Shown: positions 21,001 to 30,000 of the stretch, in pieces
Layout: each line of letters starts with the position of its first letter
Numbering within the stretch: the stretch's first letter is position 1
Program-made: the position numbers
IMG/VR virus record: IMGVR_UViG_2671180349_000008
DNA length: 56,117 nt
Strand: one strand, 5' to 3'
From: a virus
Lineage: Duplodnaviria; Heunggongvirae; Uroviricota; Caudoviricetes

Positions 21001-24000
21001 GGCTGTCGATTGTGTCTCCGGTGTTGGGGATGATATTCACGGCTGGTGCTGGCGTAGCTGACGTAACAGGTGCTGTTTTTTCAACATTCAAATTATTACC
21101 GGTCATTCTATGTGCCTCCTTTCTCATTTCTGCTGCCACTGTTGCGTAACGTAGACGTCCTTGTTCAATCAAATAATCCCTGATCTCGGCTATCAGTAGC
21201 TTGTTGATCACAGCCTTATCTGTTCGGGTATAAAAACGTCTGGTTATCATGAAATAGTTGGCAATTGCGCCGGGGATCTCCCGTGTCGGCATACAGGCAG
21301 TATGCAGGGCGATCGCTTCGGCTATGTCATTACGGGTGACGAGAGGTTTTTTCATAAACCCCCCTGAACGTCGGCAGAGAAGGGGAGGCTCCAGTAACTA
21401 AGTGAATTGCGCGAGTTAGTTGAAAAACGGGCAGTAAAAATGCAGGGGCCATCAGGCAATTGAGAGCGTGCTTCGTCTTCTGTTGCTGCGATAACGAAGT
21501 GATAGTGGTGTTTTTTACAGGAATAGAACCGCCAGATGAATTCTTGGCGTGCGCAAGGATTGGCATTAACCATAGTTACGGCCTCGTAAGTTGATAAACA
21601 ACCTGCGACCCGCTGCTAAACAGGTGGCAGGACGTGACGGGGTTAGCAGACTGGCACTTACGAAACCAGCAGGCCGAAGCCTCCCCATCACGCCCCACCA
21701 TAATTCGGGCGTAACGTGGTTTACGGACACAAAAATACCGCAATATCGGAAATCTGCGGTTGTCCGCGTAAGTATTCAGGCTGCTAAACCCGGTCGCAGA
21801 ATTTGCTACGACGGCGGAACTATAAGCCTGAACGATTAAAAGGTCAATATGATGTGAAAAGATAGCATTCGCGACTTAAAAATACAAATTTATTAGAGCA
21901 TTGCATGCTTAATAAATACACAATTGGATCTAATAACCTCTTTTTTTTAAAGGCGAAAATATGTACCCTAAATGAGTTATAAGGCAGGTGAGGTTATAAT
22001 GAGAAAACTATTACTACCGTTATTATTTATGGCTGGGACTGTTAATGCAGCATCAAGCGTAAAGGAGATTTGTACCGATTATACGAAATACCTTGGGCAC
22101 GTTTACGGCTTTGCTGTCAGTCAAGACGAATCCATGCGCAAGAAGTTACTGTCAGATATGAAACGCCTTAAACTTTCTGAAGCGATGGTGCAGCAAGAAC
22201 TGTATAAAGTCGCAACCAACGAAAATGCTAAATATCAATATTCTCGCCTGTTAAATCCCGACGCAAACGAGATCAATCGAAGCTCTTTCGATTATATGGT
22301 AAAGGCATGCGAAACCGCTCCTGATTTTGCTATTCCTAGCTGGGGTGTGCTGGTGGCGAGCAATGCCGTTAATAAAGAAGACGTTGGAAGAAATGGCATT
22401 GACTCAATCAGAAATGCCCCAGGAATGCGCCATCAAAACGTGCAGGGTACGCTTGAAGAGCGGGCCAGGGGGCCGGGTACAAACTCCCCAATGGGAAACC
22501 TCTCACCAGAGGAATTGCAAGAGTATAACCAACGGATGGAGCAGTATGAGAAAGCGGCACGCGAACAAATGGAACAACAAAAGAACGGTTCACTTAATAC
22601 CTTCCAGCAAGGTTTAAAAGCGCTTAATTTACCCTATGAATGGTAAATATATTATGGATAACCAATTAAAATATTGATAATCGTTAATATCCAAAGGAGA
22701 TAAATTAATGCGCATCAAACGATTTTTTCTAATTCTTTCTTTGCTTACTCCATTTTCATCAATGGCAAATGTAAGCAAATGGTCAACCGGCGAGACTCAT
22801 GGTGTTCGTTCTTATGCTGTTTCCAGCAAAGATAATTATACGCTTACATTTGAGTGCGATGTTGGATTTAATAATACGGATCCCAATCAAGTAGGAACAC
22901 GACTACTCACTCTCATGAAAACAGAACCTGGCGGTGAGTCATTTGATGCTAAAAAAGAACAAATAACGCTGAAAGTTGGTGATGATGAATATCCTATCAG
23001 TTCTATCGGTTCCTCTGTGGGTGATAGTTACTGGTATGGTTTTTGGTCAGATACCCCTGATATGGAAGTTAAAACATTCGATGCATACGTAGACGGAAAA
23101 AAAATCGCAACATTTACGCTACGTAAGGCCGCAGAGCTTTTCAACGCGGCACCTGAAGATGGCTGCCTGAAGCGCGCAAAATGACCTGTCACAAATGACT
23201 ACTCGTAGAATCGGTTAACACACCAGATTCTACGAGGTTTCAATGACACCACGACAATTACTCGAAGACGTCAAATCCCGCTTCACACCTTTGATTGCGG
23301 ATGAACCTGCCTTACTGGAATCCCTGCTAAGAAAAGCATTGGGAACCTACCAGGATAGGGCGGGGCACATCAAGCGGATACGCTTCACCGATCAGGCCAG
23401 TAAATCACTTGCTTGCCCAGCTGATTTTCTTGCGCTCGTATCGGTTACAGATCACACCGGCGATCTTGTCTACTCCGATGTTTACGATGGGAATATCGAG
23501 CTTGAAGATACCCATCGAGCGGTATACCCACTGAATGTGTCATATCTGGCTAATTTGCGTGATATGGATCTGGATAATGGGGAAGTGCCACCTGAAATCA
23601 TTGGATTACTTTCTGACTATCTGGAAGTGTTAATCGCGATACCTAACACTGATCGCCTGCGAAGAATATCTATCGCGGGGAAACTCGATGCCAGCAATTT
23701 ATCCGACGAGAACACGCTGTATCAGCGAAAGCTGGATCTGGAAGAGAAAATGAGCGCAACAAGGGCAATTATCCCGGGAATTGTTCTTTTCTCATCCATG
23801 TTGAAGTGAGGGAGCTGATATGGGGCTTAATGTTGCTTCAGTAAAGTCTTATGTATCTTCGGCATTAACGACGACATTATTTGGCTCCGGCGTTGGTGAG
23901 CGGGAAGTTGGTAAGCTGACGTCAATCATCATGAACAAAATGTTGTTCGCGCAAGGATGGCAGTTCTCTGTCGAAGTTGATGGACTGGAGGGGGCAGACT

Positions 24001-27000: not shown

Positions 27001-30000
27001 TAATAAGCTGCTTGAAAAGCTGGATGCCATCAAAGACTTCTTTACTGTCGATAACCTGAAACAGGTTTTCAGTGATGCAATTGATAGTGCAATTGATTTC
27101 ATTAAGAACCCAGGGAAACACATTAAAGAGGCGGCTGGTAATATTTGGGATGGGGTTAAAAATTTACCAGGTAAAGCATTAGATGCAGCGGTTGATGCCG
27201 TTAAAAATACCCCTGCGGCAATGATTGTATCAAAAATACCCAATCCGATCGGCGAGGCTAATGCGAAAGAAATCACTCCAGAGTTAAAAGCTCCGGTTAA
27301 TAGCCACCAGGAGACGTCTGATTCTAAAACTGAATCCGATGCCAAACAGAGTAATATTGCTACCCGCGTGATAAATGCGGCACTGGACACAGCGAAAGAT
27401 AGCAATAAAACAGTTAAACAAACTGCCAATCAGATTATCAATGCAAATGCCGTAGAAACGGGCAATAGCGCGTTGCAGAAAATTGATAAAGCTATTGGTC
27501 AAAATAGCTCGTCATCATCGTCGCTTAATACCACTGGCACCAGGAATGACATTCAGAAAGCTGCGGATACTTACAACAATGGCAACTTAGATGTAAAAGT
27601 CGGAAGTCTTGGCGCTGAAGGTAAGGCAAATCTCGATAAGTTGGCTCCGTATTTTGCCGAACTAGAGAATAAATACGGTCTTCCAGAAGGCACTCTTTAC
27701 GCGATTGCTGCAACTGAATCTGGTGGTAATCCGTATGCAAAATCCCAAACCGGTGCTCTGGGGATGTTTCAGTTCACGGGGATTGCTCGTGAAGAGACTG
27801 GCTTAGCTGAAGGTGAATCGTTTGATCCTGTGAAATCGGCAGAAGCTGCGGCTCTTCTCATGAGCAAGTATCTGAAGCAAGCCAATGGAGACTTAAACGA
27901 GGCCATCACTGCATATAATGCTGGGTTTGGCACTATTAATAAGTGGAAAAAAGGCACAGGTGACTTATCGAAAGAAAACCGTGAGTACGCGATCAAGGTC
28001 AATACTCATCGTGCTCGCTATTTAGGTGGTGAAATCTATACACCAGGGGCAGGAGCACAGGGGGGGGCGCAATATGGAGTGAGGGGACCACTGCCTGATA
28101 ACGCCGTTATCGATCAGTCTACTGGCCTGGCGTTTACCCCTGGTGATAGCCCGTTTGAGAAGGGCGGTCTGGTAGACAAAATCGGTAATGCTGTTGGCGT
28201 TAACGATCTGGTCAACAAATTCATGAATGGTCGGGGGATGCGTCGAGAAGTCGTCCAGGGAACCCTCGAAGAACGTGCACGAGGAAATGGGACCGCAACA
28301 GCAGCTGGCAATGTGTATGTTGATACTCAGACGCCAGTTGAAGAGGCGCGTCCAGTGGCCAGCAACTCAAGTTACTTTGACCAGCTCGGCGCACAAATGG
28401 GGATTGATGGACTGTATGACAAACTCATTAATGCCCGGGGAATGCGCTCAAATAATTCTCCTCAACCAGCATCCACGTTCCAGGTGACGACTGCCGCCAA
28501 CGATTTGCAGCAACCAACCGGTCGTATGCAGATAGACGGACAGGTTATTAGTGACCTTGGCGGCTCCGGTGCCAAGCCGACAATGCAGTTGGCTGATAAT
28601 ACCGTTTCACTTGATGGTGAAACGAAGCGGCTGTTTGCGCAGATGACCTCATTGCTTGCCAGGATTGAAGAGCACACCAAAGACTCGGCGAAAGGCCAGG
28701 GAACTGTCGTAAAGGTCAGCACGCCTCAGCCGGGCGTTATGCGCACGGTACCACTGTCAATTGATGATCCGTTGATGAATGACTACGCGAGAGTTGATTG
28801 ATGGCCAACAATAACGAAATTGATCCTTTGCTGACGCTGGAGTTATCCGGCGTAAAAACGTATGAGTCCCAGGAGGAGGCCTGGGGCGCTCGTTTATATG
28901 AGTGGCTAAACACTTATCAGGGTGAGGTATACGGAGATCCGTCATGGGGCAATGTTTTACCGCAGTTTAAACACGAACCGACCAACTTGTCGCATGTTCA
29001 AATTGCGGTTGAGGCAATGCTGTTGCAAAAACTGACGGTAGATTTACCTGACATACCGATTTCTGGCTTGTCAGTAGCCGAGGGAGATGCTTTTGATAAG
29101 TTGAAAATATCCATTCGTATCAGGGATATAACTATCACACAGGACGTGGTGCTATGAGTAAAACAACACCGACTAAAGACAGTATTCGTGCAGAGTTTGA
29201 AGAGCTTGTCGAGAAAGATTCATTCTGGTCGAAGTTTGTCGGCTCTCAATTTGTCTCGATGCTGACATTGTTTATTACCCAGATTGTCTACAGGTGCTTT
29301 CAGTATGCCGATGCGGCGCTGGCTGAAGGCTTTATATCGACCGCGACGCGGCGTTCCTCTATCCTGGCAGCGGCAGAAACGAATAGTTACGTTGGTACCA
29401 AGCCAACACCGTCATCGGGGATGATTGAGATCACCGCCACAAGTGAAGATGCCCCAGCGGTAATCCCCAAAAACATGCCTTTAATATCTGACGACCAGTA
29501 TCCTTACATGACTATGGATGTATGCAGGTTGGTTGACGGCACCGGTACGGTAGAAGTGGCACAGTTGGAAATCCAGGAGGTGACATATACCGTTACGGCA
29601 GCCAAAGAATTTCTGGAAGTCGTGTTATCAAAGGCTCTCACTGCTGTCTGCTATAAGCTGGAAGTATTCGTGACGACCGATGGTAAGACCACGCAGTGGT
29701 CTTCCAGCACTATGTTCCGGTTAGCCGGTAGTAAAAGCCAGGTCTACGTTGAGTTTTATAAACCATCCGAACAGTTGGGTGTCCGATTCGGCGATGGGCT
29801 AATTGGGCAAATACCGCCAGAAGGCTCGACAATTACGCTTAAGGTATGGTGCACCAACGGAGATATAACCTTGGTTGCTGGCCAAAATCTGACGCCTGTC
29901 GATTCTGCGGCTAATTTAGCTAATTTGATTTCAGTTAAGACAACGACACCCATAACCGCAGGTACCGATGCCGAAACAACGGAGATCACACGTAATCGTG

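Follow-up and report, generated by a model that had tools for sequence, protein, structure and literature searches.

The Sim protein of bacteriophage P1, the subject of work by Devlin in 1982, by Kliem and Dreiseikelmann in 1989 and by Maillou and Dreiseikelmann in 1990, is reportedly periplasmic and is said to block P1 infection after adsorption. HK97 gp15, Ltp of Streptococcus phage TP-J34, and T4 Sp are envelope proteins, encoded by prophages or phages, that stop genome entry by targeting the tape-measure protein or the tail muralytic enzyme of an incoming phage. An exclusion protein with a copy of a tape-measure segment was not found described in the literature searched. The sequence analysed here, IMG/VR virus record IMGVR_UViG_2671180349_000008, is a P1-like phage-plasmid of 56,117 nucleotides, referred to at its full length as the window, and the subject of the analysis is a SimA-family gene located in its sim locus. 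The 215-residue protein encoded by this gene (hereafter the small protein) is predicted to be periplasmic and shares a segment of about 45-50 residues with Sit, the tail tape-measure protein encoded in the same window. The action of exclusion proteins on tape-measure proteins or tail lysozymes was known before; the presence of the shared Sit segment in the SimA family is solidly supported here, and its function is hypothetical.

Synteny with P1, P7, and Escherichia phage vB_EcoM-Ro157c2YLVW (Ro157c2YLVW) puts the small gene in the sim locus, with Oc4/c4 on one side and LPsit on the other. P1 Sim (SimC) is encoded at the same locus, between the c4 operator and LPsit, and likewise has an N-terminal signal sequence, but it lacks the GMR motif described below, and its mechanism does not involve the shared segment. 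Homology to SimC was rejected because no BLASTP similarity of the small protein to P1 SimC or SimB was obtained at E<=0.01. The initial annotation had described the small protein as Sim-like and periplasmic, a label that is supported by its signal peptide and by its location at the superimmunity-gene locus of P1, and that fails with respect to homology with SimC and SimB. P7 Upf50.5 and Upf50.0 (DUF5384) are also encoded at this locus and have signal peptides, but their sequences are unrelated and they lack the GMR motif. The role proposed for the SimA family would be of the same kind as that of HK97 gp15, TP-J34 Ltp, and T4 Sp, to which no homology was found using PADLOC and fold searches.

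Gapped BLASTP aligned residues 122-168 of the small protein with residues 927-969 of Sit at 23/47 identical positions (49%, E=7e-9). The Smith-Waterman score was 100, compared with 40.3 +/- 5.6 for 300 shuffles (z=10.6), and the corresponding PHROG families cross-matched reciprocally at these positions (phrog_2533 on the small protein, E=8e-8; phrog_3933 on Sit, E=1.3e-4). The segment consists of a core, N-x-x-G-M-R-[HQ]-Q, and, in many alleles, an extension, V-x-G-T-L-x-E-R-A-x-G-x-G-T. In the small gene, the core NAPGMRHQ is located at 22413-22436 and the extension NVQGTLEERARGPGT at 22437-22481. The small protein thus holds NAPGMRHQNVQGTLEERARGPGT (residues 139-161, nucleotides 22413-22481), and Sit holds NGRGMRREVVQGTLEERARGNGT (residues 940-962, nucleotides 28226-28294). 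The alignment scores bear out the initial annotation, in which a motif common to the protein at 21999-22646 and Sit had been noticed; the sit coordinates in it, 28234-28296, fall in another reading frame and yield an unrelated peptide, and the identity of 19/29 given there is to be read as 17/23 over the quoted strings, or 17/29 when these are extended ungapped. Compared with Sit-type tape-measure proteins, which have a long helical ruler region, an SLT domain, and a conserved hub-binding C-terminus, the small protein was not accepted as a tape-measure protein in its own right, as it matches only positions 929-972 of the 1130 in phrog_2533 and a single segment is shared.

At the DNA level, 43/69 nucleotides of the motif are identical between the small gene and sit, and within a block of 35 codons, 15 of the 19 identical residues are encoded by different codons, in agreement with the earlier remark that the DNA differs at synonymous positions. 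Synonymous divergence between the two genes (dS, NG86) is saturated, and nonsynonymous divergence (dN) is 0.20 in the core. The similarity between the small protein and Sit is real, old, and maintained at the protein level by purifying selection. Nucleotide identity does not exceed 72% in any small-protein/Sit pair, and on this ground a recent gene conversion between the two was rejected.

Conservation within the SimA family was assessed using an alignment of 16 diverse members, which extends down to 33% identity and includes a distant lineage whose SimA-family gene is found elsewhere in the genome, beside a PAAR-like gene. In this alignment M143, R144, and Q146 are invariant, N139 and G142 are at least 90% conserved, and the approximately 20 residues upstream of the core and the 15-residue extension are also conserved. 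The segment might be an evolutionary relic without present function, left when illegitimate recombination joined a piece of sit to the gene for some unrelated exported protein. Such an origin would be in keeping with the known status of the locus as a hot spot of recombination, at which several cassettes alternate, and with the loss of the extension in many alleles. However, residues have been retained at saturated synonymous divergence, where a neutral relic would have decayed, and the core is near-invariant at 33% overall identity and in a different genomic context, and this explanation is considered very improbable. In the distant P1-like lineage (L169 10001-10531, L171 10001-10651), the SimA-family gene adjoins neither sit nor immI, and it is followed by other genes for small exported or membrane proteins.

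On the side of Sit, the pattern G-M-R..V..G....R-A.G.G is invariant in 8/8 C-termini down to 41% identity, including those with swapped SLT alleles. Among distant Sit-type proteins, P0043 keeps the motif as RNAPGMRHQVATGSMADRAYGMGT, and P0046 (1367 residues) contains two GMRHQV copies. The sit gene of the window has 97.6% DNA identity to P1 sit, and its product matches phrog_2533 over the full length. It contains a genuine internal repeat of 23-25 residues, DKIGNAVGVNDLVNKFMNGRGMR versus DQLGAQMGIDGLYDKLINARGMR (E=1e-6), and the second GMR that had been reported in Sit belongs to this repeat and was located at residues 1011-1013 (nucleotides 28439-28447). This second copy comprises the core only, without the QGTLEERARG extension, and it is carried on an insertion of about 68 residues (Sit residues ~970-1037, window 28316-28520) that is specific to E. 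coli P1/P7-type Sit and absent from Salmonella/Klebsiella-type Sit. Copy 2 occurs as two alleles, INARGMRSNN (P1-type) and RNSPGMRKNN (P7-type); the window has the P1-type and its closest genome, Ro157c2YLVW, the P7-type, which indicates that sit is mosaic. The P7-type copy is nearer to the core of the small protein (10/20, E=1e-4). When the motif was searched for across relatives it was found to be co-conserved, and it is neither low-complexity sequence nor a common peptide, as the initial annotation had allowed that it might be.

A 50-position hidden Markov model was built from the Sit and small-protein instances of the segment (A3) and compared with 1.84 billion representative proteins using hmmsearch. 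There were 11 matches at E<=1e-3, which comprised Sit-type proteins, SimA-family proteins, fragments of either, and one spurious repeat protein; the segment was not found in other protein families in this search, and there was no match to it in the Protein Data Bank. An element of about 45 residues that is invariant in Sit, and whose only other occurrence is in an exported accessory protein encoded by the same phages, marks out a specific functional site. No mention of the shared segment in P1-like phages was found in the literature searched; the P1 genome paper was outside this coverage, and an earlier remark in it is possible.

The start codon of the small gene is probably the ATG at 21999, because a GGTGAGG Shine-Dalgarno sequence is located 6 nucleotides before it, none is present before the upstream ATG at 21972, and homologues begin at the equivalent MKK/MRK. 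Residues 1-215 matched positions 1-213 of the 213 in phrog_3933 (E=5.3e-137), and 28 homologues were found, of which some are named 'simA domain protein'; in databases the family appears only under that name or as 'hypothetical' proteins. The signal peptide has a basic n-region, a hydrophobic core, and an A-x-A-type site, and it is present in all family members. From these sequence features we infer that the small protein is an accessory ('moron') product of P1-like phages that reaches the periplasm by Sec export. The protein was modelled by AlphaFold2 with the family alignment. The helical domain (residues 20-130), which includes the invariant C25 and C104 and the signatures CTDY..YLGH and PD..IPSW, was modelled with a predicted local distance difference test score (pLDDT) of about 90-97; the linker bearing the motif (residues 139-167) has pLDDT<50 and is predicted to be disordered, and a C-terminal helix (residues 170-208) has moderate pLDDT. 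Fold searches with the N-domain gave no significant match. A match of residues 24-109 to PTP-like phytase (PF14566), which scored 26.7 bits against a cut-off of 27 and was obtained for 3/16 diverse members, was rejected as probably spurious, no CX5R / HCxxGxxR catalytic motif being seen. A near-threshold PF14566 match is also present in the precomputed annotations of close homologues.

The sequence following the core is modular. Some alleles have the Sit-like extension V-x-G-[TS]-L-x-E-R-A-[RY]-G-x-G-T, and in others the core leads straight into one or two Cys-hairpin modules, or into nothing; in the family alignment, the point at which the C-terminal module is swapped immediately follows either GMR[HQ]Q or the extension. 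Natural variants with 163, 176, and 179 residues end just past the motif, and in the common 163-residue E. coli variant a recombination breakpoint is located at window position 22478, within the last motif codons. In the model and the alignment the segment looks like a linear motif, as it is predicted to be disordered, is conserved, and is flanked by variable sequence. Colicin translocation domains are likewise disordered and display a short conserved epitope (TolB or TonB boxes) that competes for a periplasmic partner. The likeness to them is conceptual only, with no sequence relation; the core has no TonB-box-like hydrophobic strand, and alleles without the extension read GMRHQPSRNT. Readings of the segment as a TonB box or an OmpT site were rejected because in most alleles the residues that such sites require are missing from the conserved core.

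The junction of C-terminal module exchange coincides exactly with the motif, and this would be expected if N-x-x-G-M-R-[HQ]-Q were a site recognised in both proteins by a host protease or chaperone of the periplasm, at which the C-terminal module of the small protein is released and Sit is trimmed after ejection, with no competition or exclusion. The predicted disorder would leave such a site accessible, and in the Sit of the E. coli lineage the 68-residue insert is flanked by two motif copies. The natural forms of 163-179 residues, however, have almost nothing downstream of the motif to release, the conserved 20 or so upstream residues and the 15-residue extension exceed the needs of a cleavage site, and we know of no protease with this specificity; a processing site is judged quite unlikely.

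Several further observations were made on the C-terminal modules of the family. In P0051, from the distant P1-like lineage, the C-terminus is swapped right after GMRHQ, yet the protein ends in LKSLNLPFKLY, resembling the LKALNLPYEW at the end of the window protein, and this tail is a second conserved C-terminal motif. In the 163-residue variant (L035 10001-12143), the DNA downstream has been replaced by another YfjT-like allele and the gene for a 325-residue protein in which a hydrophobic segment and an apparent SH3-like C-terminus were read from the sequence; this may be another defence or accessory gene. Mimicry of virion proteins by the other C-terminal modules was looked for using tblastn against the window and ten related loci, and only the small genes themselves were matched.

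Sit is a tape-measure protein that is present in the virion and holds the muralytic domain of the tail (PMC9024508, PMC12810830). It contributes density at the centre of the baseplate, but Sit itself could not be resolved in recent cryo-electron microscopy (PMC12810830). The shared segment comes after the SLT domain and before the last ~100, highly conserved residues of Sit, a position from which early exposure in the periplasm would be expected. In long-tailed phages the tape-measure protein leaves with its C-terminal, tip-proximal part first. At infection, Sit would be expelled from the tail into the periplasm beginning with the C-terminal part at the baseplate end, and its segment would act as a short linear docking element that engages a partner, in the periplasm or the inner membrane, on which genome delivery depends. 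A resident prophage would export a soluble protein that displays the same element on a flexible linker, and this protein would occupy the partner, or cap the incoming Sit, with the result that superinfection by P1-like phages is blocked.

Superinfection exclusion of this decoy type, by mimicry of the tape-measure protein, is regarded as a serious possibility that falls somewhat short of an even chance. It is more doubtful that the SimA-family protein is the first example of such exclusion, serving as a decoy for the entry factor of Sit. The decoy role is plausible from locus, export, and mimicry. Counted in its favour were the real and specific homology, the selection at the protein level, the exclusivity of the segment, and the co-conservation of both copies, together with the signal peptide, the invariant Cys pair, the position in the sim locus beside immI, and the other exported proteins encoded there in P7; the minimal natural forms (163, 176, and 179 residues), which end just after the motif, were also counted. 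Export of the protein, its expression in the lysogen, an exclusion phenotype, and the identity of a partner are what we infer in addition.

The alternative in which the small protein binds the incoming Sit itself was weighed using covariation. The small protein would, for example, either co-assemble with Sit oligomers through the homologous segment or present the segment to the SLT domain as a pseudo-partner, so that peptidoglycan cutting or channel formation is neutralised, and the outcome would be exclusion or protection of the lysogen from 'lysis from without'; T4 Sp, which inhibits the gp5 tail lysozyme, is the model for this mode of action. Motif pairs from the same genome were compared with shuffled pairings in 5-7 lineages. 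Same-genome pairs had 95 identical positions versus 89.9 for shuffled pairings (p=0.028), and the five extension-bearing lineages gave p=0.058; strong lineage-specific covariation was not found, the p values being 0.03-0.06 only. A viral scan using the Sit alignment returned nearly only E. coli-type loci and added no lineages. The core of the small protein stays near NAPGMRHQ whatever the resident Sit allele, for example beside the E. coli Sit-1 GRGMRRE. In these 5-7 lineages, a small sample, the pattern fits constraint by a common third partner somewhat better than co-evolution through mutual binding. Given the weak covariation, the constancy of the core across Sit alleles, and the lack of a significant fold match to any hydrolase inhibitor, binding to Sit is held to be unlikely. 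The probability that is left belongs to roles other than the decoy and the three alternatives set out here.

Several points weigh against the small protein being a decoy. Decoy exclusion is a proposal from sequence and context, and a comparison of both cassette proteins with the PADLOC-DB defence profiles gave no match at E<=0.1. Within-genome covariation is weak (permutation p 0.03-0.06, 5-7 lineages). Several alleles keep only the 8-residue core without the Sit-like extension, so that most of the similarity first seen is not universal, and P1 and P7 do without an intact SimA-family gene, which makes the gene dispensable. Since no host protein was found to have the segment, it would not be mimicry of a host ligand. 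Outside the SLT domain, the model of Sit residues 740-1130 is of low quality (mean pLDDT 47), and packing of the segment cannot be read from it. Expression from a PsimA-like promoter in lysogens is suggested by the P1 annotation only. The motif, situated at a module-swap junction, could be a processing site instead.

If the small protein is a decoy, mimicry of an ejected virion protein would be added to the known exclusion mechanisms, the hot spot for exported proteins at this locus would be explained, and the motif would provide a handle on the route of P1 DNA through the periplasm and inner membrane.

The P1 simA gene (P1_gp043) is the same gene as the small gene and has the same position. 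Residues 1-41 of the small protein are 93% identical to residues 10-50 of P1 SimA. DNA homology to P1 (window 21972-22138 versus L001 1974-2132) ends at window position 22138 and resumes at 23191, indicating that in P1 the rest of the small gene and the YfjT-like gene that follows it were replaced by simB-simC. The 52 residues of P1 SimA amount to the signal peptide and about 25 further residues, and the N-domain and GMR motif are missing. Judged by this alignment, P1 simA is a 52-codon 5' stub of the intact gene for the 215-residue protein. The 'superimmunity accessory function' annotated for P1 SimA is putative only, and listing simA among accessory superimmunity genes is probably an error; its annotation would be corrected from a small accessory gene to a gene remnant.

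Over the interval 21500-29200, the window is 97-98% identical to P1-like phage-plasmids, the best match being Ro157c2YLVW, and P1 and P7 cover 83-86% of the interval. In annotated relatives, kilA, ant1/2, icd, and c4 are found in this order on the minus strand and are followed by a variable cassette, after which the late promoter LPsit, pmgC, tub, pmgB, sit, pmgA, bplA, and gene 16 are found on the plus strand. The content of the cassette varies by phage: it is simA-simB-simC in P1, upf50.5 (an outer-membrane lipoprotein) and upf50.0 (DUF5384), both exported, in P7, and genes for two 'hypothetical' exported proteins of 215 and 158 residues in the window and Ro157c2YLVW. In P1-like elements the sim locus is recognised as a variable region of low GC content (PMC9603915, PMC6906374), which in the window falls to 0.35-0.43, compared with 0.46-0.50 in the flanks. 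The small gene is outside the late operon and adjoins the immI control region. Coordinates of the features are provided in Table 1.

Table 1. Positions of the features described in the text, numbered from the first nucleotide of the window
Feature	Coordinates	Strand	Basis
SimA-family gene, 215 residues, phrog_3933, predicted periplasmic	21999..22646	+	Open reading frame, translation, profile match
Predicted signal peptide, residues 1-17, MRKLLLPLLFMAGTVNA, cleavage after VNA (then AS)	21999..22049	+	Read from sequence
All-helical conserved N-domain, residues 20-130 (predicted)	22056..22388	+	AlphaFold2 model, family alignment
Sit-like segment of the small protein, residues 122-168	22362..22502	+	BLASTP alignment to Sit residues 927-969
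Variable C-terminal module (long helix in the window allele)	22506..22622	+	Model and family alignment
sit, tail tape-measure protein with internal lytic transglycosylase domain, 1130 residues	25409..28801	+	Homology, profile
SLT lytic transglycosylase domain, Sit residues 748-857	27650..27979	+	Pfam PF01464, 95.1 bits, E=2.7e-27
Sit motif copy 1, residues 920-969, GLVDKIGNAVGVNDLVNKFMNGRGMRREVVQGTLEERARGNGTATAAGNV	28166..28315	+	Alignment to small protein
Sit motif copy 2, residues 991-1016, DQLGAQMGIDGLYDKLINARGMRSNN	28379..28456	+	Internal repeat
Putative C1 operator, Oc4-like site, AAATTTATTAGAGCATT	21886..21902		Exact pattern match and P1 annotation of Oc4
Second cassette gene, predicted exported YfjT/YkfB-family protein, 158 residues, phrog_3429	22708..23184	+	phrog_3429, E=1e-80

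The Oc4-like site is situated in a divergent control region, with c4-icd-ant (minus strand) on one side and the small gene on the other. According to the P1 annotation, the predicted P1 promoter PsimA lies a short way downstream of this site, and positions 21500-22138 of the window match P1 at 93% identity. Operator and promoter functions are assigned by homology only; with the Oc4-like site directly adjoining the predicted small-gene promoter, expression of the small gene might be coupled to the lysogenic state through C1 binding.

The second cassette gene has 36% identity (E=1e-33) to a YfjT-family gene with a precomputed PF27224 match, which is the next gene after the SimA-family gene in a Salmonella P1-like element. 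Its product is named 'YfjT/YkfB family phage-associated protein' in RefSeq, and a search of the local Pfam copy gave no match. In P1-like elements of Salmonella and Klebsiella (L077, L079, L081), a SimA-family gene and a YfjT-like gene are again paired at this position. Some part of the cassette was present in 255/5,426 complete E. coli genomes, nearly always on plasmids; at least 80% of the two-gene cassette was present in 79/5,426, and the rest have the 163-residue form or the simA stub only.

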